Shown: piece after piece, positions 555-29,320 of the stretch | Layout of the letters: every line of letters starts with the position of its first letter | Position numbering within the stretch: position 1 is the first letter of the stretch | Assembly (NCBI GenBank): GCA_947085655.1 | Contig: CAMTXH010000010.1 | Location: 82,015-146,014 of the forward strand | Direction of reading: 5' to 3' | DNA length: 64,000 bases | Source of the DNA: an uncultured Omnitrophica bacterium | Lineage (GTDB): Bacteria > Omnitrophota > Gorgyraeia > JACQQV01 | Translations under genes and position numbers: made by a program | Notes under the pieces: model-generated | The model's database searches: none | What the model was told of the DNA's origin: nothing | What the model saw: only the letters and a program-made list of their open reading frames with translations

Positions 555-2386
555 GCCGTTCCTCCATTTCCATCGTCTTGAATATTGATGACATAGGGCA
601 TCCGGTGGCAAAGAATGTTGTTTCGCTGGCAGTTCTCATACACATCCGCCAACTGCTTATCAGAAACAGAGGGAATGGCGATGAGCACCTCCTCAACCCT
701 TTCCTGCCTGGCAATCGTGACCAAATCATGGCGGGTTCCCAAAACAGGGATGCCGTGGATGAGATGGTCGCGTTTCTTCTTGTCGTCGTCTATAAAGCCG
801 ACCAGTTTGTAATTCAGTCGGCGATTGTTCCGGATTTCACGGAGGGCCAGTTCCCCCGCATCCCCCGCCCCCATAATCAGGATCCGTTTGCCATGCTCTC
901 CCAAGGAAATGAAAAATTCCCGAAAGAATCGGAGGACAACCCGGGAGCCGGCCACCAACACAAGGAGGAGAAGCCCATCGATGACGAAGACGGCGCGGGA
1001 ATATCCCTCAAATCGGAAAAGATACACCAAGTACAGAACGGCTACAATTTGACCCACCACCACCGCCTTGAAAATAGCCATAAGATCATTCAAACTGACG
1101 TATCGCCAAACTCCCCGATAAAGGCCGAAGGTGAAAAAAGAAATGATTTTGATGCCGATCAGAACAGGAAGAGACTCCAAGATCAACTGATGGTTGATTT
1201 CTGAAATGACCCCCTCAAACCGGAGGAGAAACGCCGAAAAATAGGCAAGGCAAATCAGCGAAAGATCCACCAACACCTCGACAATCCGCCGCTTGTGATA
1301 CAGAATGCCATCGAGAAAAATCCATCCTGTTTTCTCTCCGTTCGCCTTCAACTTTTCCTCGTCTGTATAGACTTTGATTTCGCCAAGAAATCTCCCGAAG
1401 GAAAAAAGTCCGATGGCGGCGAGCCCCACCAGAACCACCATTACCGCAGGATTTAACTTCGTATAAAGAAGGGTCAGCCCCCCAAACAAAAGACTCACAA
1501 TATAAAGCGTGAGGACTGCCTTCCGTTCCGACAAACCAAAGGCGACCAAACGGTGGGAGGCATGATCGCGTCCGCCATGGGAGATGGGGCGTTGGTTCAG
1601 TCTCCGTGCAAGCGTCACGAGAGTCGTATCCAAGATTGGGACGGAAAGGGCCAAGACCGGAAGGGCGAAAATGACGACCAAATTCGATATTCCCTGATCG
1701 ATTTGAAGAATTGCCCCGACTGCCAAAAGATAACCCAACAGCATACTCCCGCAGTCCCCCATAAAGATTTGGGCAGGGGTGAAGTTATACCGGAGAAACG
1801 CAAGGGTCGCACCAATGAGCAAAGCCATCAGGATAGCAACGTGGGGATGGCCATTCATCAGGGTGTTCCCGAGAAGCGTCAAGGCGGAAATGACCGCGAT
1901 CCCGCCCGCCAGACCGTCCATGTTGTCCAGAAGATTTACTGCATTCATCAACCCCACAATCCAAAGAATCGTCAAGGGGATGCTGACTAGCGGTGAAATG
2001 CTCCCCGCGAACCGGACACCGAACCCGATGGTGACACAGGCGATCACGATTTGACCGATCAACTTGGAGGAGGGTTTGATCCGGATGAGATCATCCGCAA
2101 GACCCAATGCAACCGAAAGAGAACTTCCCAAAAGGATCATCCAAAAAATCATGCCGTCCCGGAGAAAGAGAAGAAACGAAACCAGAAAAGCGAGGAAGAT
2201 GGCGACCCCTCCCAAAAGAGGGGTCGGCCTCGAGTGCCAGCGATCCTGTTTCGGAAGGGAAACGCAATGAATCTTTAGGGCAAAGCGTTTGACCAGAGGT
2301 GTCAGTCCTAGAGCCAGAAAAAAACTAAAGGCGAACGCTGCTCCGACGGCGATAAGAGGGCTACTGTTTAAAATAGTCGATGACAC
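551..2386 (-). CDS. polyprenyl-phosphate HexNAc-1-phosphate transferase (WecA/WbpL/MraY family, GT4-like) fused to a CapD/PglF-type N-terminal membrane + CoA-binding-like module
   Basis: N-terminal 330 aa multi-TM with NAVNLLDNMDGLAGG MraY/WecA motif; C-terminal GLYRGVWRYVSLNDL 4-TM motif then ILIMGAGDAGELALREI...VGFIDDD...IHGIPVLG Rossmann-like segment typical of WbpM/PglF/WcaJ N-termini; no dehydratase domain. Confidence 0.7.
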   Translation of the reverse strand: MSSTILNSSPLIAVGAAFAFSFFLALGLTPLVKRFALKIHCVSLPKQDRWHSRPTPLLGGVAIFLAFLVSFLLFLRDGMIFWMILLGSSLSVALGLADDLIRIKPSSKLIGQIVIACVTIGFGVRFAGSISPLVSIPLTILWIVGLMNAVNLLDNMDGLAGGIAVISALTLLGNTLMNGHPHVAILMALLIGATLAFLRYNFTPAQIFMGDCGSMLLGYLLAVGAILQIDQGISNLVVIFALPVLALSVPILDTTLVTLARRLNQRPISHGGRDHASHRLVAFGLSERKAVLTLYIVSLLFGGLTLLYTKLNPAVMVVLVGLAAIGLFSFGRFLGEIKVYTDEEKLKANGEKTGWIFLDGILYHKRRIVEVLVDLSLICLAYFSAFLLRFEGVISEINHQLILESLPVLIGIKIISFFTFGLYRGVWRYVSLNDLMAIFKAVVVGQIVAVLYLVYLFRFEGYSRAVFVIDGLLLLVLVAGSRVVLRFFREFFISLGEHGKRILIMGAGDAGELALREIRNNRRLNYKLVGFIDDDKKKRDHLIHGIPVLGTRHDLVTIARQERVEEVLIAIPSVSDKQLADVYENCQRNNILCHRMPYVINIQDDGNGGTA

Positions 2387-3362
2387 TCTTCAAAATCTCC
2401 TCAAGGTTCATTTTCGGTTTGTAGCCGAGTAGCGAATGTATTTTTTCAATGTTCGGCGTCCGCCGCTGCATATCCTCAAAACCCTCTCCATAGGCCTCCT
2501 CATAGGGAACATATTCAATCGGCGAGGCAGAACCAGTCATTTCCTTGACTCGTTTTGCCAGATCTTCGATCGTAATTTCTTCACCGTTTCCAACATTGAA
2601 GACGTCCCCTTCCGCCTTCGGCTCGTTCATCAGGGCAATCAATGCCGCGACGGTGTCGGAAACATGGTTAAAACTGCGCGATTGCTTTCCGTCTCCGTGG
2701 ACACGAATCGACTGTCCCAGGAGTGCCGCCTGAACAAAATTCGGAAGAACCATCCCGTACTGGCCTGTCTGCCGCGGCCCGACGGTGTTGAAAATCCTTG
2801 CAATCACGACCGGAAGCTTTTTCTCGATGTGGTATGCAAGGGCCAGGAACTCATCGATCGTCTTAGAGGAGGCGTAGGCCCAGCGTCTTTTCTTGACCGG
2901 CCCCAAGATCCGGTTGTCGTCCTCACGTAATGTATGCTCGACATGATTTCCGTAAATCTCCGAGGTAGAAGCCAGAAGAACTTTGCGTTTGTACTTATTC
3001 GCAATCTTCAGGACAATCTCAGTGCCTTTGACATTGGTCTCGATGGTTTCAATCGGTTTGTCCATAATGAGCCGGACGCCGACGGCTGCTGCCAGATGAT
3101 AAATTTGTTCAACGTTTTTAATCAGTTTGTCCATCACATCCTCGTTCATGATGCTATCTACGGTAAGGTGAAACTTCGGATGATGGACGATTCCTTCCAA
3201 ATTCTGCAATCTTCCTGTTGAGAGATTATCGATCACCCAAACCTCGTCTCCCCGCTCAAGGAGCGCTTCTGAAAGATGGGAACCGATAAACCCGGCTCCG
3301 CCCGTCACCAAGATTTTCACGGAATCACCTTCTCTTTCCCCTGTTTTCCAGTAACTCTTCAT
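2361..3362 (-). CDS. NAD-dependent nucleotide-sugar epimerase/dehydratase (extended SDR, GalE/UDP-glucuronate decarboxylase-like)
   Basis: ILVTGGAGFIGSHL glycine-rich NAD motif, YASSK catalytic motif; possible GTG start near 3320 just after upstream stop. Confidence 0.8.
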   Translation of the reverse strand: MKSYWKTGEREGDSVKILVTGGAGFIGSHLSEALLERGDEVWVIDNLSTGRLQNLEGIVHHPKFHLTVDSIMNEDVMDKLIKNVEQIYHLAAAVGVRLIMDKPIETIETNVKGTEIVLKIANKYKRKVLLASTSEIYGNHVEHTLREDDNRILGPVKKRRWAYASSKTIDEFLALAYHIEKKLPVVIARIFNTVGPRQTGQYGMVLPNFVQAALLGQSIRVHGDGKQSRSFNHVSDTVAALIALMNEPKAEGDVFNVGNGEEITIEDLAKRVKEMTGSASPIEYVPYEEAYGEGFEDMQRRTPNIEKIHSLLGYKPKMNLEEILKSVIDYFKQ

Positions 3363-5214
3363 AAAGTATTTTCATGTCCGATATGAGCCGTTCCTTGGAA
3401 TACCGGTCCCGAACCCACTCACGACCCCTTTCCCCAAAGCGAATCCGGATCTCTGCATGATCCAAAAGGAATCCGATTCTGTCGCAGAAAGTCGATCCGT
3501 CCCCCGGCGACACAAGATACCCTGTGACTCCCTCCTGAACAACATCCGGAACCCCGCCCACCCGGGTCGAGACGACCGGCCGGGCCGCCGCCATTGCCTC
3601 AATCAGAGAAACTGGAGTCCCCTCATTTTTTGAGGTCTGAACCACCACATCCAAATCTGGGTAAATCCGCTCAAGGTCCTTCCGCCAGCCAAGAAACGTA
3701 ACGTGCCGTTTTAAACTCCGCCTTTGACATTCTGTCTCCAATGTCTCACGTAATTCGCCATCCCCCACAATGACAAAATGAACATCCTGGTGGCGCTTCA
3801 AAAGTTCCGCCGCGATCGAGAGGAAAAAGGCGTGGTCTTTGACCGGCACCAGCCGACCGACAATCCCGATGAGTCGGATTCCTTCCGAAAGCCCCAATTC
3901 CCTACGGAGAAAACCGCGATGCTTTTCCGCATCCAAAAAGGAGTCCAGATCGAGTCCTAAAGGGATAACCCGGATCTTTTCGGGAGAACCGATGCGGTAT
4001 TTCTGAGAAAGTTCCTGACGGACTTCTTCGCTGACCGCGATGAGGCAGTCGGACCGGCGGGCGAGCCATCGTTCGACGGCGAGGAAAAACCGGGTCTTAG
4101 GTCCGTTGAAATAATCATGAAAGACATGGCCGTGATAGGTATGCACCCGGACCGGAACACCGACCAAAAGCGCTGCCAATCGACCCAATGCCCCCGCCTT
4201 CGCCATATGGGTGTGGACAATATCCGGACGTTCCCGCCTGAAAAGCCGGAGGAGTTTCCAGAAACTAATCCAGTCGGTCACCGGATGAATTTTCCGCCTC
4301 AGTTCCGGAACCGCATGCACCGAAATCCTAGGGTGCCCCTTGAGTTCCAACAAATTCCCCTCCCGGGGTTCGGTAGACCCTGAGACCAAAAGACTTTCAA
4401 ACTGGCCATGGTTCATTCCTTCCGTCAGGAAAAGGGCGTGCAAGGCGGGACCCCCGATATTCATACGGGTCACGACGCGCATGATTTTTCTTCGGCTTCC
4501 GTCCTTTTGACGGCGCCTCAATTCAAGAAGGCCGAGACCGCACTTCCAAACGATCTTAAAGAATTTCAAATGACTTTCTCTCCTGGCGATGGAAACAACA
4601 GGGACTTCGGCAATTCGAAGTCCGGAACGATTTGCCAAAAGGAGTATTTCCAAATCCCAAAGCCAGTCGTTTCGAACGGTCTTTTTCATGAGAGGAAACA
4701 GCGCTTCCCTTCTAAAAGCCTTGAGACCTGCCTGAGTATCACGAATGGACAATTTAAATAAGAAGGACAAGACAAATCGATAAATGGCCTGTACCAGATT
4801 TCTCATCCATCCCCGCTTCGCCTCTCCTCCAGGTACTGCTCTGGATCCAATAGCAATATCAAATCCTTCCTCCAGACGAACAAGCAGGTGTTCCAAATAA
4901 GAGACGTCGATCTCCAAATCGGCATCCAAGAAGGCATAATATTTGCTTTCGCCGTGCAGAAAGCCCTGTTTTAGAATTCCTCCCTTTCCGACGTTTTTTT
5001 CCTGTCTGACCACAACCACCTTCTCCGGATGTTTCAGGGATTCCTTTTGAAGGATTTCGTCAGAACCGTCCGTTGAGCCGTCATCCGCAAGAACCAAAGT
5101 GTAATCGTAACGCTTTTCTTCGAGGAAGGAACGAATTCGGTGAAGATTCGATTCCAGGATATCCCGCTCGTTAAAGATGGGGATCACCAGCGTCAATGTG
5201 TGAAAGGTGTTCAT
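3325..5214 (-). CDS. bifunctional glycosyltransferase: N-terminal GT2 domain fused to C-terminal GT4 (group 1) domain
   Basis: ORF 3325..5262 trimmed to MNTFHTLTLVIPIFNE (ATGA overlap at 5211-5214); GT2 signature VIPIFNE...LADDGSTDGS; GT4 signatures IVHTHMAKAG and NEGTPVSLIEAMAAARPVVSTRVGG (EX7E). Confidence 0.7.
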   Translation of the reverse strand: MNTFHTLTLVIPIFNERDILESNLHRIRSFLEEKRYDYTLVLADDGSTDGSDEILQKESLKHPEKVVVVRQEKNVGKGGILKQGFLHGESKYYAFLDADLEIDVSYLEHLLVRLEEGFDIAIGSRAVPGGEAKRGWMRNLVQAIYRFVLSFLFKLSIRDTQAGLKAFRREALFPLMKKTVRNDWLWDLEILLLANRSGLRIAEVPVVSIARRESHLKFFKIVWKCGLGLLELRRRQKDGSRRKIMRVVTRMNIGGPALHALFLTEGMNHGQFESLLVSGSTEPREGNLLELKGHPRISVHAVPELRRKIHPVTDWISFWKLLRLFRRERPDIVHTHMAKAGALGRLAALLVGVPVRVHTYHGHVFHDYFNGPKTRFFLAVERWLARRSDCLIAVSEEVRQELSQKYRIGSPEKIRVIPLGLDLDSFLDAEKHRGFLRRELGLSEGIRLIGIVGRLVPVKDHAFFLSIAAELLKRHQDVHFVIVGDGELRETLETECQRRSLKRHVTFLGWRKDLERIYPDLDVVVQTSKNEGTPVSLIEAMAAARPVVSTRVGGVPDVVQEGVTGYLVSPGDGSTFCDRIGFLLDHAEIRIRFGERGREWVRDRYSKERLISDMKILYEELLENRGKRR

Positions 5215-6506
5215 GAGGGTATAACCCCCTGTTGAGAGGCAAACAGGGCCAGATAAAGCCAAAGGTGCCTCAAGTGATGAAGATCAACGTAGAAACCTGT
5301 CAGTACCAAACCCAAAAGGGTATACGCCATAACCGGAGAGTAAGTTGCCTCGTTGTGTTTGAAGGCGTTTGGAAAGCGGCGTCTTGCTGTTTTGGCCAAA
5401 TGCATACAGAACATGGCAAAAGCGCCACACCCCAATAAGCCGCGTGTCGCCAGGAGTCCGAGCCAGGTACTGTGAGGCATGGCATAACGGTATCGGTCGT
5501 GAATTTTTTTTTCTGAGACCGCGTTTTGCGTCAGTATTTGAAAACCGCCGGGGCCGACACCAAGCCAGGGATGCTTCCGGAAGCCATCCCATGCAATCCG
5601 CTTCAAAAGGCCGTAGGAGGCAGGGTCAAATGTTATGGAAAATGTGAGTTTTGGAGACCCAACACCGCTTTGATAAAAAGAATACTGCATTTTAGAAGGG
5701 CCCAGGTCCTCACGGGACCAGCGCCATACCACATCTCTTACGACAATGGAGGACGACAATTCCAGGAGCAAAACAAGACCGACCAAGCCAGCAAGAACCA
5801 GCGTTTTATTCCTCCGCCACAGCAAAAGGAAAAGAACCGTTGCCGCAACACCGGCAAAAACCCGGGAATAGGTAAGCCAGAGGGCAAGGAAGGCGAAACC
5901 AAACAAAACGCTCCACTGGAAACGATGGTTTCCGACGGAAACCTTCTGCCATATAAGACTCAAAACAAGTACCAAATAGGTTGCTAACATCGTCGGCGCA
6001 AATTGGGGGCTGCAGAAGGTGGAGAGCAGGCGAACACGCTCCCCAAAAAAAGGCATCAGCGTCACAAAAACAAAAGGATTGTCTACACCCAGCATATGCA
6101 AAAGATACGCCCCCAGCCCGATGCCGGTGACGATGCCTCCCACAACAAGAAAAGTTGTAACGGTCTTTTGGGGCAGGCCCTTTTGTGACAAAACATGCAA
6201 GCTGGAGAAAAATATCAATATCACGTAAAGATCTTTTGTGACCTCAATCCAATGAGCACGCAGGCCTCCCCGAAAGAAGGACGAGACGATGCTGACCATC
6301 AGAAAAATTCCAAGCCATCGCGCATAAGGGTTCCCTAAGCGTCGTTTGTTTTTCTCGCGCATCCACTCCAGACCGGCGACAAGAATGAATATTCCGCCTA
6401 AAAGGTCCACAACCCCTATCAGTACGGGATGCATCAGGAAAGGAACGCTAAAGAGGTATGCCAAAAACAGCTTCCCTGAAAGAGATGTCCGCACGGCGTT
6501 ACACAA
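5211..6506 (-). CDS. O-antigen ligase/polymerase family membrane protein (Wzy_C domain)
   Basis: about 10 predicted TM helices plus periplasmic loop with HSTWLGLLATRGLLG and HPWLGVGPGGF motifs typical of WaaL/Wzy_C. Confidence 0.6.
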   Translation of the reverse strand: MCNAVRTSLSGKLFLAYLFSVPFLMHPVLIGVVDLLGGIFILVAGLEWMREKNKRRLGNPYARWLGIFLMVSIVSSFFRGGLRAHWIEVTKDLYVILIFFSSLHVLSQKGLPQKTVTTFLVVGGIVTGIGLGAYLLHMLGVDNPFVFVTLMPFFGERVRLLSTFCSPQFAPTMLATYLVLVLSLIWQKVSVGNHRFQWSVLFGFAFLALWLTYSRVFAGVAATVLFLLLWRRNKTLVLAGLVGLVLLLELSSSIVVRDVVWRWSREDLGPSKMQYSFYQSGVGSPKLTFSITFDPASYGLLKRIAWDGFRKHPWLGVGPGGFQILTQNAVSEKKIHDRYRYAMPHSTWLGLLATRGLLGCGAFAMFCMHLAKTARRRFPNAFKHNEATYSPVMAYTLLGLVLTGFYVDLHHLRHLWLYLALFASQQGVIPS

Positions 6507-8343
6507 ATCCTTTCAACCAGGAATAAAGAATACCCAGCACCTCGTGAAGCAGTGCCCGAAGTTGACCCATTTGAACCGGCACTTTTTTCCCGTAAAAACT
6601 GCTTTTCGCAACGGGAAGGTAGCGTACCTCAATGTCCGGTGCCACCTTGTGAAATACCATCGATAAGCGCCGCATGTGATAGGGGGCGCTGACCAAAAGG
6701 ATAGAGTCCCATTTCTTTTGTGCAAGGATTTCTTTCACAAATTGAACATTTTCATAGGTGCTAGAAGAATGGGTCTCCAACAAAATTGCATCCTCCGGAA
6801 CGCCGCTTGATGTCGCGATCAATTTCATGTCTTCTGCTTCCTGATAGGAATAGACATAGCCGGATGAGAAGAGAATGGCAGGAGCCCAACCGGCCTTGTA
6901 AAGCTCCGAGGCGTACCGCGCCCGTTCAATGGTGCTGATCCCAGGGTGCCTTGTCTCACCCACCCCACCCCCCAATACGACGATCACATCCGCTTTTTGG
7001 GGAGCTTCTGCAATCTTCAGGGGACTTGCAAGCATCCAGATGAAGGGCGTATAAAAGAAAGCCGCCCAGCTGATTCCCACAACAACCAGGATCGTCGCAA
7101 GTTTCCTTCTTGTCTTCCGGTAGGCCATTTGAAACGCACTCGCCCAATGAGACTCCGAAAATGCCCTCTTTTCCTTTATCCTGTCCGCAATCAGCATGCT
7201 CATGGATTCAATCCGGTTTGTCCAGCTGTTCTGGCGTGCGGCATCAATCCGTCTCTGAACATCAGTCCCATTTGCGGTTTTTAGTGTTTCTTGAACCCGA
7301 CGAAAAAAAGAATCGGGACCGTCCCCGATGGACACCAGTTCCCCGAAATCCCGATTGAAACGGATGACTTCCGGGAGAGGTGTCGAGACAACCGGTTTCC
7401 CCAGAAAAAAATACTCATTCAGCTTGGTCGGATAGACGCACCGGGTATAGTCCGTCAGAACGTAGGGAATGAGTCCCACATCAAACGCCTGAATGTATCC
7501 GGGAAGCTCCTCGTGGGTCCTTCCGCCGACAAAGTGGATGTTCGGCCGTTTTTCCAGAAGACTGACATCCGTCTGCACCGGCCCGACAAGGACAAAGGAA
7601 CAATCCGGCATTTTCCCTGCCAAATGATGCAACAGGTTCTGGTCAATCCACTTGTGGACACCTCCGACATAGCCGATCAAGGGCCGTTTCAGCGCCGCAA
7701 GTTCCGAGGGTTGCCGGGCAGAGGCCTGCTTGGCCTTTTCGAATGTTCTGAGCGAAACGCCGAATGGGAAGAAATGAACAGAGGTGTTAGATGTCTCGCA
7801 GCGGCGTTTCAATTGCTCCGAAGTCACGAAAATCAGATCCGCTCTTTCGCAAAGACGTTTCTCGGAGCGCCTTATTTTTTCGGCGGCGCGGCTGCTGCTG
7901 GCGAAATGGTCGATGCAGTAATAAATAAGGCACTGGTGGTCGATGTGGTCGATGAGATCCAAAACGAGATCTGTCGGCAAAAATGTCCAGATGATCGGTT
8001 TGTCAAATTGGACGGACCGCATCCACCGCCTGAGTGTTCTCAGCAGGATCAAGGAGTTAATCCGCGTCGCAATAGCTGAATACGGGAACGGCAGGGCCAA
8101 GGGGGAAAAGATAAAAAGTCCCTCTGATTTTTTCCGGATTCCCCCCAGTCCTTTTTTCCAATTCAGAAAGCGCTTTTTCAACCTCGGCAAATCCCGCAGG
8201 CCCGGCGTCCGAACACCCAGATTTTCTACAAAGAGGACGCGGTTTCCCTCTTCCGCCAAAGTCGTCATAATTTCTTGGTGGCCCTGCCAAATAAAGTCCC
8301 AATCGATCGAAGAGATACAGAGAATGTTTTCGTTCTTTAACAT
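6499..8343 (-). CDS. GT4 (TuaH-like) glycosyltransferase fused to C-terminal DUF218/YdcF (SanA/ElyC-like) domain
   Basis: ORF 6499..8394 trimmed to MLKNENILC (ATG 8341-8343 right after upstream stop 8337-8339); N-term SSIDWDFIWQGHQ TuaH-like start; C-term ADVIVVLGGGVG...SSTYENVQF...SAPYHMRRL DUF218 signature. Confidence 0.6.
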   Translation of the reverse strand: MLKNENILCISSIDWDFIWQGHQEIMTTLAEEGNRVLFVENLGVRTPGLRDLPRLKKRFLNWKKGLGGIRKKSEGLFIFSPLALPFPYSAIATRINSLILLRTLRRWMRSVQFDKPIIWTFLPTDLVLDLIDHIDHQCLIYYCIDHFASSSRAAEKIRRSEKRLCERADLIFVTSEQLKRRCETSNTSVHFFPFGVSLRTFEKAKQASARQPSELAALKRPLIGYVGGVHKWIDQNLLHHLAGKMPDCSFVLVGPVQTDVSLLEKRPNIHFVGGRTHEELPGYIQAFDVGLIPYVLTDYTRCVYPTKLNEYFFLGKPVVSTPLPEVIRFNRDFGELVSIGDGPDSFFRRVQETLKTANGTDVQRRIDAARQNSWTNRIESMSMLIADRIKEKRAFSESHWASAFQMAYRKTRRKLATILVVVGISWAAFFYTPFIWMLASPLKIAEAPQKADVIVVLGGGVGETRHPGISTIERARYASELYKAGWAPAILFSSGYVYSYQEAEDMKLIATSSGVPEDAILLETHSSSTYENVQFVKEILAQKKWDSILLVSAPYHMRRLSMVFHKVAPDIEVRYLPVAKSSFYGKKVPVQMGQLRALLHEVLGILYSWLKGFV

Positions 8344-9506
8344 GCAAAGACCTCTCGAAGAAGCCCCTCGACCGTCGCGGCACGGTGCTCCCAAGTGTGT
8401 TGGAGGGCGAACTCGACCCTGGACCGTTCCTTGTCTCCTTTTTCCCCCAGTGCTTTTTGGATCTGCAAGATGAATGAAGAACTATCCTCTGCCACGTAGA
8501 CCAATCCGTCCATCTCTTCAAAGCTTCCAAGCGGTGTCGAGACAACCGGTTTTCCGACAGCCAGATATTCAAAGATCTTTAATGTCGAAAGCCCCTCGGT
8601 GAACGGGTCCACGATGAAGGGATGCAGGCACACATCGGCTTCTCTCAAAAACTGGGGAACCCGGCGTCGTTCCTGCTCCCCCAGGTAAAAGACATTGGGA
8701 AGCCGGAAAAGTTCCCGGAAGGCCGTTTTCCCTCTCATCAGCCGCCCGATCAAAAGCAAAGACCAGTCTCTCTTTTGCTGCATCACCTCAACCATAAGAG
8801 GAATGTTAAACTTACGCGCATCAAGATGTCCGGCAAAGGCCAGTCGGGGTGAAGGAATCCGGTGAAGCGCCCCGTTCTCATCCGAAGACGGCATCCGGGA
8901 TTCCCTAAAGAAAATGGTTTCATCAACGGCACTCGGGAGAAAACAGATCCTTCGAGGACTTGCAGGAAAAAGAGCTGCCCGCCGTTCGGACATCGTGAAG
9001 ACAAGATCCGCCCGCCGTAAAAGTTCCGCCTCCACCTCCTGGAGGGTCCTCTGCCGAAGCCAGATGTTTCTCTCCGCCGAGTGACCCTCAAGGGCGTGGT
9101 ACACGACCCCAGCCACATCGCCAAAGGCCGGTATCGCATCAGCCGCCAGGGGCGTATAAGTCCATAGAAGCGGTGTTGTAAAGTGGAGCCGGGACAAAAC
9201 CTGTTTTAATTCATTCACCAGACGCCTCTGGTTCCATTGGTTGATCCGGCGATCATAAGCCCCAAAGGGAAACGACAGGGAGGGTGTGTACACCCAAAGA
9301 GACGGTGCGACACTGCGCAAAGCCCCATTCTTCTTCCATCGTCCCCGCAAAGATTTGTAACGGAAGGGGTGAAGGCAGGATGCCTGATATTCCACAAAGA
9401 GCACGCGACGCTGCCCGGCCAGCCGGCGCATGATCTGCTGCCGGCTGCCGACCGGAAAATCCCAATCCGATGTAGAGAAACAAACAATGTCAAAACTAGG
9501 TGTCAT
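8337..9506 (-). CDS. GT4 (TuaH-like) glycosyltransferase
   Basis: ORF 8337..9644 probably starting at MTPSFDIVCFSTSDWDF; paralogous N-terminus to previous gene; C-terminal VGKPVVSTPLGSFEE GT-B motif. Confidence 0.6.
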   Translation of the reverse strand: MTPSFDIVCFSTSDWDFPVGSRQQIMRRLAGQRRVLFVEYQASCLHPFRYKSLRGRWKKNGALRSVAPSLWVYTPSLSFPFGAYDRRINQWNQRRLVNELKQVLSRLHFTTPLLWTYTPLAADAIPAFGDVAGVVYHALEGHSAERNIWLRQRTLQEVEAELLRRADLVFTMSERRAALFPASPRRICFLPSAVDETIFFRESRMPSSDENGALHRIPSPRLAFAGHLDARKFNIPLMVEVMQQKRDWSLLLIGRLMRGKTAFRELFRLPNVFYLGEQERRRVPQFLREADVCLHPFIVDPFTEGLSTLKIFEYLAVGKPVVSTPLGSFEEMDGLVYVAEDSSSFILQIQKALGEKGDKERSRVEFALQHTWEHRAATVEGLLREVFAC

Positions 9507-10542
9507 CAACAGGGCCGACCTCGCCGTTGAAAGAAACAATTTCGTTGTGCATCTCTGAAAAATGGCATCCTTTGCAAATGTCCAGCGTTCCGGACCAAAC
9601 CTGTTTTCTGTATTCTTGATACGCCTGACTCCTCCAGATTTCACTCAAAGGTTTTTCGAATATATTGCCGATCACATGGCGCCCGTTAAAATCGAGACAG
9701 CAGAGAATCGCTTCGCCGGTCCAGAGAATCACCATCCGATCCAACGGAAAGGGACATACAAAAGCAGGGTCTTTGATAAAACGGACGCGTCCGTCCTGAA
9801 GGTCATAGCGCCGGAATCGAGGCGTTGTCGGCAAAAATTCCTCGGCGTAACGTCCCTTTTCTTCTTCGGTCAGCCAACTTCCCATATTGAGATTCATCGA
9901 TTTCAGAATCATGCGGTCGGCGCCTATTTCCCTTGCCGTACCGATCAATTCCGGAATCTGGTCTTCATTGTACCGCGTGACAATGGTTTGGAGGGATACC
10001 ACAGGCGATTTCGATTTCCTTTTTCTCTTCTCGTCGCATAGAAGTCTTGCGCCTTTCAGGACCTTCTCAAGGTCTGACCCCACACGGTAGCGACCATGCG
10101 CTTCTTGGTTGGCACCGTCCACTTCAATCGTGATGTATTGGAGCCGGGAATCCAGGATGTCGCCGATATACCGCTCCAATAGAACGGCGTTCGTATCGAC
10201 GGTTGATGGAATTCCCCGCTGCCAGGCCCGATAGGCCATTTGATAAAGCATCGGGTTCACCAAGGGCTCTCCCGAAAAAGCAAAGTTCATCAGTTTCGGT
10301 TTCCAATCAATCCGGTCCAGGATCTTCTGAAACGTCTCTATGTTCATGATGCCTTTTGCCCTCTCCATCTTATGGGGCGTGGGACAGAGGGGACATTTGA
10401 TATTACACGTATTCGTCGGTTCGACAACGAGATAACGCGGCAGATGAAAATTCACCAGCTGGGGAAAACGGATGAGGAAAAATTTGGCGGTCCCCCGGAC
10501 CAAGGGGGATGACCACATCCTGTTCAAAATGGCTTTCTTCAT
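9496..10542 (-). CDS. radical SAM protein with C-terminal SPASM/twitch-like Cys cluster
   Basis: CNIKCPLC (CxxxCxxC) near N-terminus; C-terminal CPFPLDRMVILWTGEAILCCLDFNG...CKGCH auxiliary cluster cysteines. Confidence 0.7.
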   Translation of the reverse strand: MKKAILNRMWSSPLVRGTAKFFLIRFPQLVNFHLPRYLVVEPTNTCNIKCPLCPTPHKMERAKGIMNIETFQKILDRIDWKPKLMNFAFSGEPLVNPMLYQMAYRAWQRGIPSTVDTNAVLLERYIGDILDSRLQYITIEVDGANQEAHGRYRVGSDLEKVLKGARLLCDEKRKRKSKSPVVSLQTIVTRYNEDQIPELIGTAREIGADRMILKSMNLNMGSWLTEEEKGRYAEEFLPTTPRFRRYDLQDGRVRFIKDPAFVCPFPLDRMVILWTGEAILCCLDFNGRHVIGNIFEKPLSEIWRSQAYQEYRKQVWSGTLDICKGCHFSEMHNEIVSFNGEVGPVDDT

Positions 10543-12062
10543 CAGAATACCCCTGGATTCACCGGAAAGGCGCGCTGAAGGAGTTTCCTCTCTTCGGCAT
10601 CAAACACCTTTCTGAAGTAAGAGAGGCATAAAAAGACTGCACCCCCGAGAAAAGCCAGCGCAACAATCATGGTCAAGGAAGTCGCGGTCCCGCTCAAAAG
10701 AAAAACAACGCCTCCTGCAAGAGAAGCATGAAGAGCAATCTGGACCAGAGAAAGCCAGGGAGTCTCTAACGAAACGATCTGCTTTGTCATCATATAGTGA
10801 AGAAAAAAGGCGAGGACGGGACTGACACCGCTTGCGATAGCCGTCCCGATCATCCCCCACTTTTTCGTTAGAAACCAGGCAGAAATCAACCAAAATGTTA
10901 CGGCGGGCAAGGATCCTTTTACGATGATAATCGGTTTCTTGAGCGTCCAGATAAAAGTTGCAAGCGGTGCGGCCACAGCCTTAATCAGTCCGAAGAAAGC
11001 AAGGGTCCAGAAGGCAGGCAGAGCGGCCAGATAGTCGGCCTTGAAAAAGCGCTTGATGACCGCGGGCATGAGGACCGCTGAGATCATAATAAAGGGAAAG
11101 AGAATAAAGGCCTGAATTTTACAGTTGATGCGATACAGAAATTTTTGTTCGTCCAAATCCTTTGTCTTGGCGTATTGCCTCAGAAAAAGAGGCGTAATAA
11201 CCGATTTCAGCACGAGTGCCGGAGAAAAAGTGACGAGTGCATTGGCAAGTTGCGCGGCAAAGGCGTACCACCCGGTCGCCGTCGCGCTCAGGAAATGGCT
11301 GACCATGTACAAATCGACGCGGGTGTCCAGAAGGAAATGAAGGAAATTATCGATATGAAGCGCTGCGCCAAACCGGAAAATCTCTCCCTTCCCTCCCTTT
11401 GCCTCCTCCCCTTTGGTCTCACGTTTTCCGAAGAGTAGCGGAAGAACCCTTACCAGATAAACAACCAAAAGAAGCGTTTCTGTTACGATCCACGCGGTGA
11501 AAAGCTTCTCCAAAGCCGCTGACCGGCTGAGAAGCCAGGCAAAAAGAAGGAGTTTGAGTGTCAACGCCGTCACCGTCCCTGTGACCACGTATTTCCGCAG
11601 CAAAAAAGCATTCAAGGTGTTCTCAACGAGCAGGATCGATACCCTAAGGAAACAAAAAATCAAGAGAAACGGCACGAAACGCATCAGTTCGTCATTCCTG
11701 ACCCATTGCGCCAAAATCCTGCTCAAGGGATGAATGACCGGGATGAGCAACACAAAACTTAGAAAGAGGATTGCGTAACAACGTTTGAGGAGCCACCGGC
11801 TCCTCCCCCACTCCTGTTTTTCGACATATTCGGAAACGAAACGCGTCACGACATAAGGCATGCCCCAACTCAACGCAAGCGCAAAGAAAATAAGGGTAGT
11901 GACAACAAGACTGTAAAGTCCAAAGTCTTGAACGGACAAATGTCGGACAAGCAACACCAGGATCAGAAGCGAAAGGAGAGACGAAAAGAAGGTTCCGACA
12001 TAATTGTAGATGGCCCCTTTCAGTGCAAATTGCGGAAATGTGGTCTTTAACCCTTCCTTCAT
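10542..12062 (-). CDS. wzx: Wzx-type polysaccharide flippase (MOP superfamily, polysaccharide biosynthesis protein)
   Basis: 506 aa, about 12-14 hydrophobic segments, typical RfbX/Wzx architecture; location between glycosyltransferases. Confidence 0.7.
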   Translation of the reverse strand: MKEGLKTTFPQFALKGAIYNYVGTFFSSLLSLLILVLLVRHLSVQDFGLYSLVVTTLIFFALALSWGMPYVVTRFVSEYVEKQEWGRSRWLLKRCYAILFLSFVLLIPVIHPLSRILAQWVRNDELMRFVPFLLIFCFLRVSILLVENTLNAFLLRKYVVTGTVTALTLKLLLFAWLLSRSAALEKLFTAWIVTETLLLVVYLVRVLPLLFGKRETKGEEAKGGKGEIFRFGAALHIDNFLHFLLDTRVDLYMVSHFLSATATGWYAFAAQLANALVTFSPALVLKSVITPLFLRQYAKTKDLDEQKFLYRINCKIQAFILFPFIMISAVLMPAVIKRFFKADYLAALPAFWTLAFFGLIKAVAAPLATFIWTLKKPIIIVKGSLPAVTFWLISAWFLTKKWGMIGTAIASGVSPVLAFFLHYMMTKQIVSLETPWLSLVQIALHASLAGGVVFLLSGTATSLTMIVALAFLGGAVFLCLSYFRKVFDAEERKLLQRAFPVNPGVF

Positions 12063-13201
12063 TCCCCCCTCACTGTCGTGGATACCTCCGGTATAGAAAC
12101 GATCTCTTCGGATTTGACACAGCGCGGTTCCACGGAAAAGTTTCTGACAACACTGGCAAGGCGATCCCGATAGATGTGGGAAGTATAACGTTCCTCGATG
12201 GTTCTTCTACCTGCCTCTCCAAACCGCTTCCTGAGAGAGGGGTCCTCAAGCAATAGGGATAATTTTTGAACCCATTCTGCCTCCGTGGAAGCCAGAAATC
12301 CGTTGACGCCGTCCTGAACCACCTCGCCGTTCATTCCGATGGGCGAGGCGATCACCGGGACTCCCGCCGTCATATATTGAATCGTCTTGAAAGCCGCTTT
12401 GCCGCGGGCCCAGGGATCGTCCGGCAGCGGATGGACCCCGATATCCAGACCCAGAAAACAGTGCCATTCTTCCGTCAACGACCACTCACGGTTTTCCACC
12501 CACACCCCCGGAATCTCGAATGCCCTGGAAGCCCCGACGACTCTCAGCACAAAGGGATGCTTCTGCGCCAATGTTTGGAAGACCGGCAGGATCCGCTCAA
12601 GATACCCGGAGGTGGAGGGGGTCCCGATCCAGCCGATCACCGGTGGTCCCTCCTGTTCCCTCTCCCGCCTCATCCGAAGGTACTCCGGATCTACCACGGT
12701 CGGAATCACCCACACCCTCTCATGGTACCGCCTGACATATACCGCGAGCGTGTGGTTGGCTACGAGGACAGCCCGGCTTATGCGAATCGTCTGACCCACC
12801 TTCCAGGAACATTTCAAAAAACGCCACGCGGGGCTCAACCGGCTGGTGTCCGATAAAAAGATGGCGTCGTCAAAATCAAAGATCACCGGCTTCCCCATCA
12901 ACCAGCAGCACCACTCAAAGAGGGGAGGTCCCACCGGCGCTGCCTCCCGGTGAATGAAAATGACATCCGAACGAAATGCCCAAAAAAGGTCTCCTGTCCG
13001 CTTCAGGCAGGCGCCGAGAAAATAAAATGCTTTTTTGAGAAGTTGGCCCCTTCGGTGGAGAAGCCGGTAAAATGCCCGTGTCATAAAGGGGCGTATCTGG
13101 CACCGGATGCCCTGTTCTTCCAGATAGGGCAAATATTGCTCTACCCTGTAGCGATTACTCGCGCCTTCGGTCGGATAAGGCACAATAAAAAGAACTTTCA
13201 T
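12059..13201 (-). CDS. GT4 (group 1) glycosyltransferase
   Basis: ORF trimmed to MKVLFIVPYP (ATGA overlap 13198-13201); C-terminal AGVPVIASPIGMNGEVVQDGVNGFL EX7E-type motif. Confidence 0.75.
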   Translation of the reverse strand: MKVLFIVPYPTEGASNRYRVEQYLPYLEEQGIRCQIRPFMTRAFYRLLHRRGQLLKKAFYFLGACLKRTGDLFWAFRSDVIFIHREAAPVGPPLFEWCCWLMGKPVIFDFDDAIFLSDTSRLSPAWRFLKCSWKVGQTIRISRAVLVANHTLAVYVRRYHERVWVIPTVVDPEYLRMRREREQEGPPVIGWIGTPSTSGYLERILPVFQTLAQKHPFVLRVVGASRAFEIPGVWVENREWSLTEEWHCFLGLDIGVHPLPDDPWARGKAAFKTIQYMTAGVPVIASPIGMNGEVVQDGVNGFLASTEAEWVQKLSLLLEDPSLRKRFGEAGRRTIEERYTSHIYRDRLASVVRNFSVEPRCVKSEEIVSIPEVSTTVRGE

Positions 13202-14412
13202 GATTTTTCCAGGAGGGACAGATACATCTGATGGTATCTCCTCGCCCCCTCTTCCAGGGAAAGTTGTGAGGCGGCCACGCGGCGGCATCTTTCGGAAAGC
13301 TCCTTCCCCTCTCTTAAAAGCGCGGTCAGGGCATCCGCGGCACGTTGATAACTTTCCCCCGAGAAATCGGAAACGACGACGCCTACACTGTTTTCCCGAA
13401 TGAGTGCTTCGGTATCCCCCACATCCGCATTCAGGACTACGGGAAGCCCCGCAGCAAGGTATTCACCCACCTTGGTGGGGCTGGAGGCCATTTTTGAGAA
13501 GACCGGTTTGATAAACGAAATCCCCGCCTGGGCCGATAAGAGCGTTTTGGGGACGTCTTCGTAGGAACTTTGCCGGATGATGAGCCCGTTTCCTGAATGG
13601 CGGCGGAGTCTCTCCCACAATTTTCGGTCACCGGTTTGGGTTAAAATCTGAAATGAGGCATTCGGAATCCTCGTCTTCAAAACCCGATAAAAATCAAGCA
13701 TCGGTTCCAGAAGATACCACGTACCGAGTGACCCCACATACACCAGAACAACCCCTTCCTGAACCGCAGACACCCTTGCCGGGCCTGCTTCCTCAAATCG
13801 CCTCACATCCACGCAGCAAGGAATCACGGCGACCGGCACCTGGTCACGAGTGGCCCTTTTCTGTTTGAGGTAGGCGGCGGCGCGATGGGTGAGCACAACC
13901 ACGCCATCCGCCGACTTCAAAAAGCGCTGCTCGAGGGCGGAGACAAGTCTGTACATCACTCCATGGCGCTTCCAAATTCCGCCATCCGCATATTCCTCCG
14001 CCAGAAAACCCCTCACATCAAATAAAAAGGGTCTTTTTTGCAGCCGTGAAATCATCCATCCGATACTGGCCGGAATGGTCCCCCGCGCATGGATCATCTC
14101 CACGGCATGCCTTTGCGCCAAACGCCGAGCCACCGCAAAACCGGTTACAAGATCCATCGATGTCGACAAAAGAGGGGGAAATTTATGGTACCGGCACCAG
14201 GTCCATCGGATGCCCCCTTCTGCGAGCTCCTCACGGAAACGACGCATCCCGGATTTCCCCAACCGCACGCAGTCTTCCTTTTTCTCAAAGGTCAAGAGGA
14301 TGATCTCAATCCCCTTTTGTGCAAGTCTCCTCAGGTACGGCAAACCCTGCGACTTAAAAATCGGCTCAAGCGCCCCGTTGTAAGAGAGAAATAAAACGCG
14401 TTTAACTGTCAT
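13198..14412 (-). CDS. GT4 (group 1) glycosyltransferase
   Basis: ORF trimmed to MTVKRVLFLSYNG (ATG 14410-14412 after upstream stop); C-terminal GEYLAAGLPVVLNADVGDTEALIRENSVGVVV. Confidence 0.7.
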   Translation of the reverse strand: MTVKRVLFLSYNGALEPIFKSQGLPYLRRLAQKGIEIILLTFEKKEDCVRLGKSGMRRFREELAEGGIRWTWCRYHKFPPLLSTSMDLVTGFAVARRLAQRHAVEMIHARGTIPASIGWMISRLQKRPFLFDVRGFLAEEYADGGIWKRHGVMYRLVSALEQRFLKSADGVVVLTHRAAAYLKQKRATRDQVPVAVIPCCVDVRRFEEAGPARVSAVQEGVVLVYVGSLGTWYLLEPMLDFYRVLKTRIPNASFQILTQTGDRKLWERLRRHSGNGLIIRQSSYEDVPKTLLSAQAGISFIKPVFSKMASSPTKVGEYLAAGLPVVLNADVGDTEALIRENSVGVVVSDFSGESYQRAADALTALLREGKELSERCRRVAASQLSLEEGARRYHQMYLSLLEKS

Positions 14413-15853
14413 GGCGCCGAACCTCCCAAAGCGGACCCTGAGGAATAAGGGTAAAACGTTTCTCCAATTCGCGAATGCTATAGTAATTTTCCTCGTTATC
14501 CGCAAGATAAACCGGACGGCGTCCGGTTTCCCTTTCAATCAACCGGTAAAGCTCCTCCCTTTTTTCGGGGAAAAAGACATACCGGTCAATCGTGGCGTCA
14601 ATGGAGACGTCCGGCCGCAGGCCTTCTATCTCTTGGTAATAGAGGAGAACCATCATCGGCGTAAAATCGCCGATGATTAAACTGCCCGGTTTTACGACTT
14701 CGAGAGATGCCAAACCGTACTGCCTCGGTCCGAATTCGCTGCGCTTGACGGGATTGAGGTAAAAGCGGTTATTGTCCCGGAAGGCGAGCTGCCGGCCGCG
14801 TACAAAGTCGATTTGATAACGTTTCGAAAAATGTGGCAGACTGAGGTACAATCCGACCGGCAGGATGACCAAAAGAGCCAGGGCCCCCAGCGCGAAGGAG
14901 GGATGGCTCGCTCCTTTGGATGCCATCGCTCCTCTTAGGCCAAAACCGATCCAGACCGCGAAGAGGACGTAAGTGGGAAGCATCAGAAAAAAATTTCGCT
15001 GCCGCATATAACCACAGGCAAGGAGGATATTCAGGAAAAACACCGTCAGCAAAACCCAGAAGAACTTCCCTCTTTCCCGAACCATCTTCCTGGTGCCCAG
15101 AAGACCCAATCCGAATCCAACAAAAGGAAACTGGTAAAAGAGGTAGGCGGGATAAAGACTCAGTTCCGATAACAGGTCGCCGGGCCTCAAAAACCATCTG
15201 TTCGCTCCCAAGTCCAAAGGGGCGTTCCTGAACGCCAAAATCAGCATCGGAGAACATCCGAGGAGAAAACAAACAATGCCCAACAGACCCCGGTCGCTCA
15301 AAAGCCACCGCCTCCCCCGTTCCAGAAGCAGGAGATAGAAAAAGGTTGCGATAATCATCAATCCGGACAAGAGGTTATTGAGAAGGGCCACCCCCATCAG
15401 AAAAAAATGCAGGATAAGATAGACGTCTTTTCTTTTCTCCTCCCATGTCAACAGGAGGAAAAAGCCGGTTGTAAAAAAAAAGATGCAAAGTGAATAAGAC
15501 TCGTTGATCACCGAGGCCAGCCAGAAGGTGTGCGAAAGCCCCAGACAGACCGTCGCCAAAAACGCCGCGGCTTCGTGCTGCAGAAGCCGGCGCATCGCCA
15601 GGTAAAAGAACCAGAGGGCCAAAATCCCAAAAAAGGCGGACATGAGGTTTTGCCTGTAGGCAAAGTCGCCGAAGGGCAACCAACTGAAGAGTTTCCCGAT
15701 GAGCGTGTGAAGCATATGGTTCCCTACCGGATCAAACACGATGGTCATTTCCTTGACATAGATCGCCAGTTTTGCTGAATCCCCCCAGAGAACGGTCGGG
15801 GCGAGGGTGTACCAATACAGGACGGCGAAAACGCTGACCGCTAAAAGTCCCAT
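14402..15853 (-). CDS. GT-C fold membrane glycosyltransferase, DUF2723/TMEM260-like
   Basis: N-terminal YWYTLAPTVLWGDSAKL motif resembling DUF2723 start, multi-TM N-half plus soluble C-terminal domain; immediately downstream of a DPM1-like GT2. Confidence 0.45.
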   Translation of the reverse strand: MGLLAVSVFAVLYWYTLAPTVLWGDSAKLAIYVKEMTIVFDPVGNHMLHTLIGKLFSWLPFGDFAYRQNLMSAFFGILALWFFYLAMRRLLQHEAAAFLATVCLGLSHTFWLASVINESYSLCIFFFTTGFFLLLTWEEKRKDVYLILHFFLMGVALLNNLLSGLMIIATFFYLLLLERGRRWLLSDRGLLGIVCFLLGCSPMLILAFRNAPLDLGANRWFLRPGDLLSELSLYPAYLFYQFPFVGFGLGLLGTRKMVRERGKFFWVLLTVFFLNILLACGYMRQRNFFLMLPTYVLFAVWIGFGLRGAMASKGASHPSFALGALALLVILPVGLYLSLPHFSKRYQIDFVRGRQLAFRDNNRFYLNPVKRSEFGPRQYGLASLEVVKPGSLIIGDFTPMMVLLYYQEIEGLRPDVSIDATIDRYVFFPEKREELYRLIERETGRRPVYLADNEENYYSIRELEKRFTLIPQGPLWEVRRHDS

Positions 15854-16548
15854 CAGTCGACAAACCTGTATTTCAGAAGAGCCCAGAGCGCCAAAAAGCC
15901 GTCGGTCCAGTGAATCTTTTTCCCTTCAGCATAGGTCCTGCCGTAATAGGAAATGGGAATTTCATACACCCGCCACTTGCGCTTAAAAATTTTTGCTGTG
16001 AGCTCCGGCTCGATCCGAAAATCGCTCGAACGGAGCGTCATCCCCTGAATCACCTCCCGGCGAAACACTTTATATCCCGTCTCCATGTCACTGAGGGTCG
16101 TGTTGTAGAGAAAACCGGTCACGAAGGTGAGAAAATTGTTTCCCAGTTTATGCCAAAAGAGATAAACGCGCTGTGGTTTGGCGGCGGAAAGCCGGGAGCC
16201 GTACACCACATCGGCAACCCCTTGTTGAATCGGTTCAATCAGTTCGGGGTACTCCGAAGGATCGTACTCCAAATCGGCATCCTGGGTCAGAATAATCTCT
16301 CCCGTTGCATGTCTGAAACCTGTCCGAAGGGCCGCTCCCTTTCCGAGGTTTTTCTCATGGTAAAACACCTTCACCCCCTCATCCCCCAAAGACGCTTCTA
16401 TCGCCTTCAGTCTGCGGCGGGTCTCCTCGGAAGAGCCGTCGTCTACAATGAGAATCTCCTTCTCCAAAGGCACTTCCCTCACTCTCCGAACGATCTCCTC
16501 GACCGTGTCGGTTTCATTGAAAACAGGCATGATCACCGAAATCTTCAT
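15853..16548 (-). CDS. GT2 polyprenyl-phosphate sugar synthase (DPM1/GtrB-like, soluble 231 aa)
   Basis: ISVIMPVFNE...LIVDDGSSEET...TQDADLEYDP signature of dolichyl/undecaprenyl-phosphate glycosyltransferases. Confidence 0.8.
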   Translation of the reverse strand: MKISVIMPVFNETDTVEEIVRRVREVPLEKEILIVDDGSSEETRRRLKAIEASLGDEGVKVFYHEKNLGKGAALRTGFRHATGEIILTQDADLEYDPSEYPELIEPIQQGVADVVYGSRLSAAKPQRVYLFWHKLGNNFLTFVTGFLYNTTLSDMETGYKVFRREVIQGMTLRSSDFRIEPELTAKIFKRKWRVYEIPISYYGRTYAEGKKIHWTDGFLALWALLKYRFVD

Positions 16549-23725: not shown

Positions 23726-23737
23726 GGAGAAACACCG

Positions 23738-24988: not shown

Positions 24989-24996
24989 CATGGTCA

Positions 24997-29310: not shown

Positions 29311-29320
29311 AAACGTTCTC

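Follow-up and report, generated by a model that had tools for sequence, protein, structure and literature searches.

What might a radical S-adenosylmethionine (SAM) enzyme contribute to the assembly of a bacterial surface glycan? This question is raised by a 64,000-nucleotide stretch of DNA from an uncultured Omnitrophica bacterium (contig CAMTXH010000010.1, positions 82,015 to 146,014; hereafter the window), in which a gene for a radical SAM protein lies on the minus strand at 9496–10542, directly behind a Wzx-type flippase gene and directly ahead of a glycosyltransferase gene. A preliminary description, made from the sequence alone, had singled the gene out as that of a SPASM-type radical SAM enzyme that bears an additional C-terminal Cys cluster and is encoded among overlapping glycan genes, with no gene for a peptide precursor close by. 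The radical SAM class, the auxiliary Fe-S domain, the close coupling of the operon and the lack of a peptide substrate nearby were all upheld in our analysis, which indicates that the protein is probably a cytoplasmic enzyme of the Twitch type that tailors a carbohydrate intermediate of the surrounding surface-glycan pathway.

Translation of the window gives an open reading frame (ORF) of 348 aa with an ATG start, as had been described. An alternative start at Met9 (position 10518) would yield 340 aa and was chosen in the public annotation of assembly GCA_964374045.1 (contig CAYJWX010000003.1), which encodes an identical protein (P0001); it would put a 23-nt gap behind the Wzx gene in place of a 1-nt overlap. 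With the longer frame, the TGA stop of the Wzx gene (10544–10542) and the radical SAM ATG (10542–10540) share one A in a TGATG junction, and the motif AGGGG sits 7 nt upstream of this ATG. At the other end, the downstream glycosyltransferase gene, with the start assigned to it in the public assembly (ATG at 9506–9504), shares 11 nt with the end of the radical SAM gene (stop codon 9498–9496). As judged from these junctions, the radical SAM gene is predicted to be translationally coupled to both neighbours. The 1–11 nt overlaps in the preliminary description were thus reproduced, as was the placement between glycosyltransferases and a flippase, with Wzx upstream, a glycosyltransferase of family 4 (GT4) downstream and, flanking these, additional GT4, family 2 (GT2), Wzy and GT-C genes. 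Between positions 8300 and 12100 every ORF of at least 20 aa is nested inside one of the large genes and none stands free, so there is no room in this region for a precursor-peptide gene, in agreement with the absence of such a gene reported before. The radical SAM frame itself is not a chance ORF, since the family profile matches 12,015 representative clusters at E ≤ 1e-30. Its product is extended at the N terminus by ~35 residues of basic character, which carry a net charge of +6 (39 residues lie ahead of the Pfam core), and no transmembrane segment was found in it by a simple hydropathy scan.

The protein combines a Radical_SAM domain (PF04055; residues 40–200, 57.5 bits against a Pfam cutoff of 29.5) with a Pfam SPASM match (residues 263–327, 55.8 bits against a cutoff of 21.5). 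The N-terminal CxxxCxxC motif reads C46-N-I-K-C50-P-L-C53 (10384–10407, minus strand) and provides the putative ligands of the SAM-cleaving [4Fe-4S] cluster. Conservation of Cys residues was followed in an alignment of the window protein with 144 single-domain representatives, which had been retrieved when 1.84 billion proteins were searched with a profile. C46, C50 and C53 are each conserved in 100% of these 145 sequences, as are C263, C281, C323 and C326 in the C-terminal region, where C282 is conserved in 96%; beyond the three core and five C-terminal residues there is no further conserved Cys column, and exactly five Cys occur in the C-terminal region of 103 of the 145 sequences. The resulting pattern, C263-x12-G276-x4-C281-C282 ... 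C323-x2-C326, marks the auxiliary-cluster domain at 9565–9756 on the minus strand, with the codon of the extra Cys, C282, at 9697–9699.

The complete SPASM motif contains seven Cys (CX9-15GX4C-gap-CX2CX5CX3C-gap-C) and supports two auxiliary clusters (PMC6231123). Its first half, CX9-15GX4C ... CX2C, is met in the window protein by C263-x12-G276-x4-C281 and C323-x2-C326, but its second half, the CX5CX3C-gap-C segment with the Aux II ligands, is absent, and the protein stops 22 residues past C326 with no later Cys. Because only the first four motif Cys are present and the chain ends so soon after CX2C, we assign the protein to the Twitch type, with one auxiliary cluster. The Pfam match is no proof of a second auxiliary-cluster motif, since the model, all 67 positions of which are matched by residues 263–327, ends one residue beyond CX2C. 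A profile of the C-terminal domain matches BtrN, the 2-deoxy-scyllo-inosamine dehydrogenase of the butirosin pathway, at E = 4e-16 and pairs C263, C281, C323 and C326 with BtrN C169, C187, C232 and C235; in BtrN, the auxiliary cluster is held by four Cys and has been proposed as the electron acceptor (PMC9012708). In the same profile, C281 falls on anSME C276, which is an Aux I ligand (PMC6231123). The AlphaFold2 (AF2) model has the radical SAM fold, a partial TIM barrel (mean predicted local distance difference test score 88, predicted template modelling score 0.86) and contains a Twitch beta-hairpin at residues 269–279 followed by helices. The alignment thus predicts a site for a second Fe-S cluster and none for a third. 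Of the earlier assignments, the N-terminal motif stands, as does the C-terminal Cys cluster, the latter with five conserved Cys (C263/C281/C282/C323/C326), all but C282 of which are putative ligands. The label SPASM-type holds as far as the above-cutoff Pfam match and the first four motif Cys are concerned and fails for the seven-Cys motif and its second auxiliary cluster, and the second Fe-S site, whose absence on careful alignment would have told against the preliminary description, is retained.

Classification with hidden Markov models (HMMs), a step that had been proposed earlier, placed both domains above their Pfam cutoffs, but no NCBIfam model reached its cutoff for the window protein. 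The best match was the tungsten-cofactor oxidoreductase maturase TIGR04317 (128.8 bits against 380, E = 2.6e-37), which would be the starting point for regarding the protein as a cofactor maturase akin to TIGR04317 or to the radical SAM enzymes of the heme/PQQ type. The score is, however, far under the cutoff, the better of the two matched stretches is the radical SAM core (residues 35–214), and neither an aldehyde:ferredoxin oxidoreductase gene nor cofactor-pathway genes were found in the window or at related loci, which leaves this reading barely credible. Other NCBIfam models also scored below cutoff, with 31.8 bits against 400 for BlsE (TIGR04466), 33.3 against 349 for anSME (TIGR03942) and 57 against 381 for PqqE. 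When the family profile was run against PDB sequences, the best match was BtrN, through both domains (1.3e-23), followed by BlsE, through the core (1.1e-21); PqqE, GDGT-MAS, a radical SAM sactisynthase (5wgg/5why), SuiB, SkfB and DesII also matched. A Foldseek search with the AF2 model ranked BlsE first, BtrN second and DesII third, with radical SAM structures at a probability of 1.00. Sequence identity to these three proteins is 16–20%, and to BtrN 18%. We do not take the protein to be a BtrN orthologue, given this identity and the fact that no aminoglycoside-pathway genes were found in the window. The nearest solved relatives BtrN, BlsE and DesII all act on sugars or sugar-like small molecules, which is suggestive only, but would link the window protein to a carbohydrate.

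The list of matches also bears on a different class of substrate. GDGT-MAS, an archaeal lipid enzyme, is a significant PDB match (E = 1.6e-16, core only), the basic 35-residue extension could sit on a membrane and the neighbours of the radical SAM gene all handle polyprenyl-linked substrates, so that the enzyme might instead act on the lipid carrier, making a radical change to a polyprenyl or dolichyl chain or to another membrane lipid. We consider this very unlikely: the GDGT-MAS match is limited to the common radical SAM core and is weaker than those to BtrN and BlsE, and the domains fused to members of the family are glycosyltransferases and methyltransferases, with no prenyl-modifying enzyme among them.

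Most characterised enzymes that match Pfam SPASM act on peptides or proteins (PMC9012708, PMC10114670), and many maturase models for RiPPs (peptides that are made on ribosomes and modified after translation) are among the low-scoring NCBIfam matches. The protein could accordingly be a sactisynthase, an anSME or another SPASM-like maturase whose substrate is encoded elsewhere, its place in the operon being incidental or a protein of the glycan pathway being the target. Against this, the Pfam scan of the 348-aa protein found Radical_SAM and SPASM as its sole domains, with neither an RRE nor a PqqD domain, the N-terminal extension has just ~35 residues and there is a single auxiliary-cluster site. 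Moreover, there is no free-standing small ORF in 8300–12100 and no sulfatase-type target in the 64-kb window, the peptide-maturase models all score far under their cutoffs, and the enzyme shows a consistent glycan context and has relatives fused to glycosyltransferases. A peptide or protein substrate is, in our view, highly improbable.

The family to which the window protein belongs is large. The 150 top matches of the family profile each score above 300 bits over their full length, and the exact Cys pattern recurs in no fewer than 145 clusters (50% identity), with thousands more that are related. Just 14 close relatives came from a word-indexed search, and if the identical protein is left aside their identity reaches 42–43% at most; the closest representative, P0033 (46%), lies on a 1.3-kb contig without context. 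Several members are fused to glycosyltransferase domains, namely P0061 to GT4, P0085 to GT2 and P0094 to GT28_C; their respective identities to the window protein, 35%, 33% and 36%, are on a par with those of most members that have a single domain. Fusions to class I methyltransferases (P0080, P0084) and to a B12-radical SAM domain (P0108) are more distant (29–34% identity), and others join a B12-binding radical SAM domain (P0144), AAA_17 (P0149) or additional radical SAM/SPASM modules. That three different glycosyltransferase folds occur in these fusions argues, more strongly than any other single observation, for enzymes that work on substrates or products of glycosyltransferases. In addition, we observed unusual giant polyproteins, P0144 (1927 aa), P0154 (1431 aa), P0156 (1444 aa) and P0021 (1143 aa), with three or four radical SAM/SPASM modules in series, of which P0144 additionally carries the B12-binding domain.

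The window locus was placed among others by a comparison to which GTDB genomes and metagenomes contributed 80 loci each, with single look-ups in addition. A Pfam scan of 147 immediate neighbours returned two patterns. One, with RpiB (21) and metallo-beta-lactamase (18), is confined to Bacteroidales/Paludibacteraceae, and the other consists of GT4 (12), GT2 (7), PMT_2 (4), GT28 (3), B12-radical SAM (7) and methyltransferase (4) neighbours. In a neighbour-joining tree of the GTDB loci only, the window protein groups with sequences from Omnitrophota, Acidobacteriota, Woesearchaeota, Methanosarcinales, Promethearchaeota and others, and the Bacteroidales sequences form a separate clade. With few exceptions, the loci of the clade that holds the window protein are glycan loci. 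Neighbour statistics were taken for genes within six of the radical SAM gene at 26 loci (the clade of the window protein and the closest metagenome loci). The 223 neighbours comprise GT4 (26), GT2 (9), PMT_2 (4), Wzx (10), AsnB-like (11) and short-chain dehydrogenase/reductase (SDR; 15) genes, along with class I methyltransferases (26), B12-radical SAM genes (8) and paralogous Twitch enzymes (7). At least one core glycan gene (glycosyltransferase, Wzx, AsnB-like or SDR) lies within this distance at 23 of the 26 loci, and at least two do so at 19. Core glycan labels were assigned to 75 of the 223 neighbours compared to 2 of 339 in the Bacteroidales clade (Fisher p = 1.5e-31), where labels of any kind number 3 of 339. 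Pfam scans independently confirmed the glycan-context pattern: 96 neighbours at 12 loci of the clade include GT4 (14), methyltransferases (14), radical SAM (8), AsnB-like (5), SDR (5), GT2 (5), PMT_2 (5) and Wzx (4). Where the preliminary description had allowed for homologues in other contexts, the outcome is therefore divided, with same-clade homologues in glycan loci and the distant Bacteroidales clade beside RpiB and metallo-beta-lactamase genes. A carbohydrate substrate is the best-supported inference because BtrN, BlsE and DesII are the nearest relatives, because GT2, GT4 and GT28 fusions occur and because the clade is associated with glycan genes in the proportions given above.

A Wzx gene adjoins or lies near the radical SAM gene in the window and at L002, L089, L008, L009, L011 and L098. 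B12-radical SAM genes stand beside Twitch-family members at L002, L008, L089, L041 and L060, and P0108 and P0144 combine the two types in one protein. The radical SAM gene lies beside a GT2 gene resembling polyprenyl-phosphate-sugar synthases and a PMT_2-type GT-C gene in the window and at the archaeal loci L009, L011 and L097; the MOP flippase is also there in the window, L009 and L011, and in L097 the contig goes no further than the radical SAM gene. That the radical SAM gene always belongs to such a synthase/flippase/GT-C module was considered and rejected, as it fails at most bacterial loci, and the GT2 products of L013 and L016 look PgaC-like. In the Bacteroidales/Paludibacteraceae loci L020–L085 the gene forms a conserved trio with RpiB upstream (9510–9980 in L020) and a metallo-beta-lactamase-fold gene downstream (10945–11547 in L030); no glycosyltransferases were found near this trio. 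The RpiB neighbour suggests, once again, a link to sugar phosphates. Radical SAM genes have been noted beside GT1, epimerase and rfbC genes on a virulence plasmid of Brachyspira hyodysenteriae (PMC4267127). The idea that these belong to the family was rejected: across all PLSDB plasmids, tblastn at E ≤ 1e-10 matched none from Brachyspira and only distant relatives (21–31% identity), including one that lies within a heptose/aminosugar cluster of Roseibium. This relative (L091; 26% identity) is from a cultured organism, Roseibium aggregatum (plasmid NZ_CP128602.1, 22479–39333), and its cluster contains three genes of the phytanoyl-CoA-dioxygenase family, a DegT aminotransferase gene, an additional gene for a radical SAM protein and, for ADP-heptose, rfaE2 and rfaD. 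It is another sugar-tailoring context.

The neighbours also speak to the type of reaction. AsnB-like amidotransferases recur at these loci and commonly amidate uronic acids, and the SDR of the window operon best matches decarboxylases of the UDP-xylose synthase type; together these suggest that uronic acids are present in these glycans. BlsE, the top Foldseek match and the second-best PDB profile match, is a decarboxylase, and the window protein might thus be a BlsE-like radical decarboxylase that converts a uronic-acid residue of the glycan, or of an activated precursor, to a pentose. Its profile match to BlsE, however, covers the core only (positions 39–223), with the Twitch domain matching BtrN instead, its NCBIfam score for BlsE is less than a tenth of the cutoff and no UDP-glucose dehydrogenase was found among the genes of the window. 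We regard decarboxylation as unlikely and prefer oxidation or epimerisation.

For the preferred reading, tailoring of a carbohydrate intermediate, we infer the following course from the cluster sites and the gene context. A [4Fe-4S] cluster on C46/C50/C53 would, when reduced, cleave SAM to generate a 5'-deoxyadenosyl radical, which would abstract hydrogen from a C-H bond of the sugar in a cytoplasmic intermediate. For this intermediate a nucleotide sugar is conceivable, but likelier is a sugar linked to a polyprenyl-(di)phosphate at the cytoplasmic face, before it is flipped by the adjoining Wzx; the candidates are a nucleotide sugar, a repeat unit linked to undecaprenyl diphosphate and a polyprenyl-phosphate monosaccharide that serves as donor for GT-C enzymes. 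The last is a sub-hypothesis that would fit the window, L009, L011 and L097 but not most loci. An auxiliary [4Fe-4S] cluster is predicted to be fully ligated by C263/C281/C323/C326 as in BtrN, and the radical would be resolved through it in the way proposed for that enzyme (PMC9012708). Two outcomes seem likeliest. Either the electron would be lost to this cluster to give a keto-sugar, as in dehydrogenation of the BtrN type, or a hydrogen atom would be returned on the opposite face to give an epimer, as in epimerisation of the NeoN/HygY type. The family-specific C282, next to the ligand C281, is a candidate for the hydrogen donor. By analogy with BtrN it would not be needed as a ligand, and it aligns with D277 of anSME, which we take to be a catalytic residue. 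The carbon attacked, the choice of outcome and this role of C282 are speculative. NeoN is a radical SAM sugar epimerase in which the thiol of Cys249 acts as hydrogen donor (PMC10991966), and HygY appears, from the title under which it is cited there, to be a Twitch epimerase with a Cys hydrogen donor.

Several points weigh against the proposed function. The identity to BtrN and BlsE is low (18–20%), and in the SPASM/Twitch group sequence similarity and clustering predict function poorly (PMC6231123). The fusions and the genomic context show membership of a pathway, not the substrate or the reaction, and the neighbour labels in the 26-locus statistics were derived from our own ORF calling and from HMMs built for the purpose. 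P0009 and P0014 (~30% identity) are found in non-glycan contexts, as is the Bacteroidales clade, so the wider family is functionally heterogeneous. Our search of the literature for characterised SPASM/Twitch enzymes of glycan loci found no characterised member of this family, and the suggested role of C282 is drawn from alignment.

In the window, the radical SAM gene is part of an array of ~50 co-directional glycan genes, all on the minus strand, that covers 1–61965 and runs on past the window start. On its downstream side, the first gene is that of the GT4 glycosyltransferase (8337–9506; TuaH-like by Pfam and NCBIfam), whose start overlaps the radical SAM stop as described. It is followed, in domain scans, by a GT4 glycosyltransferase fused to a DUF218 domain (6499–8343), a membrane protein resembling Wzy_C-type polymerases/ligases (5211–6434) and a GT2-GT4 fusion glycosyltransferase (3325–5214). 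Next are an SDR nucleotide-sugar epimerase/dehydratase/decarboxylase (2361–3362), whose best match, UDP-xylose synthase-like, is below cutoff, and an initiating polyprenyl-phosphate glycosyl-phosphotransferase (551–2386). The latter is an unusual mix of a WecA/MraY-type domain (residues ~18–320) and a region, ~372–600, that matches the N-terminal half (positions 1–232) of WbaP/WcaJ-type models and Pfam CoA_binding_3. On the upstream side, the Wzx/MOP-family flippase (10542–12062; Pfam Polysacc_synt, NCBIfam MOP flippase) is followed, again in domain scans, by two GT4 glycosyltransferases (12059–13201 and 13198–14412) and a GT-C fold glycosyltransferase (PMT_2/TMEM260-like; 14402–15853), and then by a GT2 (15853–16548) with best matches, all below cutoff, to the polyprenyl-phosphate sugar synthases AglJ, ArnC and PpgS. 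There are four GT-C genes of the PMT_2/PMT type in the window (regions 14402–16548, 20988–25725 and 29321–30619), and three GT2 genes with best matches to AglJ/ArnC/PpgS (all below cutoff) each adjoin a PMT_2 gene. These pairs look like several modules for extracytoplasmic side-branch glycosylation.

Further along, two large genes at 16545–19585 (453 aa and 560 aa) lie inside the glycosyltransferase block with no NCBIfam match, the 560-aa product having a weak Pfam match to Ulvan_lyase_N only. The gene at 19591–20304 encodes a nitroreductase-family flavoprotein with weak BluB/FbiB-like matches, which may act either as redox partner or in tailoring. The annotation of the array also includes two AsnB-like amidotransferases (27367–29373 and 42920–44827), two CMP-sugar synthetases (33303–34073 and 52617–53381), a KdtA-like transferase (34070–35353), a TagF-like glycerophosphotransferase (37241–38548), a second MOP flippase besides Wzx, of the MurJ type (47985–49583), NeuB (54749–55618), a Wza-like exporter of 1014 aa (56342–59386) and a Wzi-like gene (59414–61051), together with HAD phosphatases and several methyltransferases. 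A second radical SAM gene of this supercluster, of the B12-binding class, is present at 39413–40861; its product and that of 9496–10542 are the only two window ORFs with a CxxxCxxC motif, and the Twitch and B12-radical SAM enzymes may work as a pair.

To our knowledge, the sugar-acting radical SAM enzymes known so far come from antibiotic pathways and use soluble substrates. Our literature search found no report of a characterised radical SAM enzyme in surface-glycan assembly of the Wzx/Wzy type or of archaea. Twitch radical SAM enzymes that act on carbohydrates are a known class, but this surface-glycan family, with its glycosyltransferase fusions and conserved CC, is not characterised in the literature as far as we found. 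It is repeatedly embedded in or fused to glycosyltransferase machinery, mostly in uncultured lineages. Once its reaction is known, glycan biosynthesis would gain a new kind of step, unusual sugars of uncultured bacteria and archaea could be accounted for and glycoengineering would have a new tailoring tool. The family would also be a natural test of how one extra Cys steers Twitch enzymes between oxidation and epimerisation. We tentatively extend the proposal, in a form that we ourselves hold to be doubtful, to the family as a whole: its widely distributed members, bacterial (Omnitrophota, Planctomycetota and others) as well as archaeal (Woesearchaeota, Methanosarcinales, Promethearchaeota), would be radical glycan-tailoring enzymes acting on lipid-linked sugars at the cytoplasmic face of the membrane, with Cys282 donating the hydrogen that inverts a stereocentre and with oxidation taking place where Cys282 is missing. 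If this were true, the family would offer an oxygen- and NAD (nicotinamide adenine dinucleotide)-independent route to rare surface-glycan sugars, often alongside class I methyltransferases, AsnB-like amidotransferases and B12-radical SAM methylases.

How does the window protein compare with known systems? With the canonical SPASM enzymes (anSME, PqqE and the sactisynthases) it shares the Pfam SPASM match, the CX12GX4C hairpin motif, the CX2C motif and, in C281, the position of anSME C276, but it is without their CX5CX3C...C segment and second auxiliary cluster, without an RRE and without a peptide or protein substrate in its context. In mycobacteria DprE1/DprE2, and in Citrobacter youngae the ORF13 epimerase, tailor a lipid-linked sugar before its transfer by GT-C enzymes, within three-component systems of synthase, flippase and GT-C (PMC11127046). 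The parallel is one of functional analogy only, in that a polyprenyl-phosphate sugar would be tailored before flipping and GT-C transfer; those enzymes depend on flavin adenine dinucleotide or NAD and have no sequence kinship with the window protein, and the synthase/flippase/GT-C arrangement is found at a minority of the radical SAM loci. NeoN and HygY, although they belong to antibiotic pathways, provide, as far as they can be set beside the window protein by their descriptions, a precedent for a single Cys that decides between epimerase and dehydrogenase, and the window family has one Cys beyond its four ligands. BlsE (a cytosylglucuronate decarboxylase, PDB 7VOB) and DesII (a TDP-sugar deaminase, PDB 8HZV), ranked first and third by fold, act on nucleoside- or nucleotide-linked sugars, but the matches to them rest on the core domain, their reactions differ and neither is from a surface-glycan locus. 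BtrN (PDB 4M7T) differs from the window protein in its aminoglycoside cluster as opposed to a Wzx/Wzy surface-glycan locus, in having CF where the window protein has CC and in length, the window protein being ~80 residues longer, with its 35-residue basic N-terminal extension, at ~18% identity. It is nevertheless the best PDB match by sequence profile, through both the radical SAM core and the Twitch domain, its four auxiliary Cys correspond one to one with those of the window protein, and its substrate is a sugar-like small molecule.

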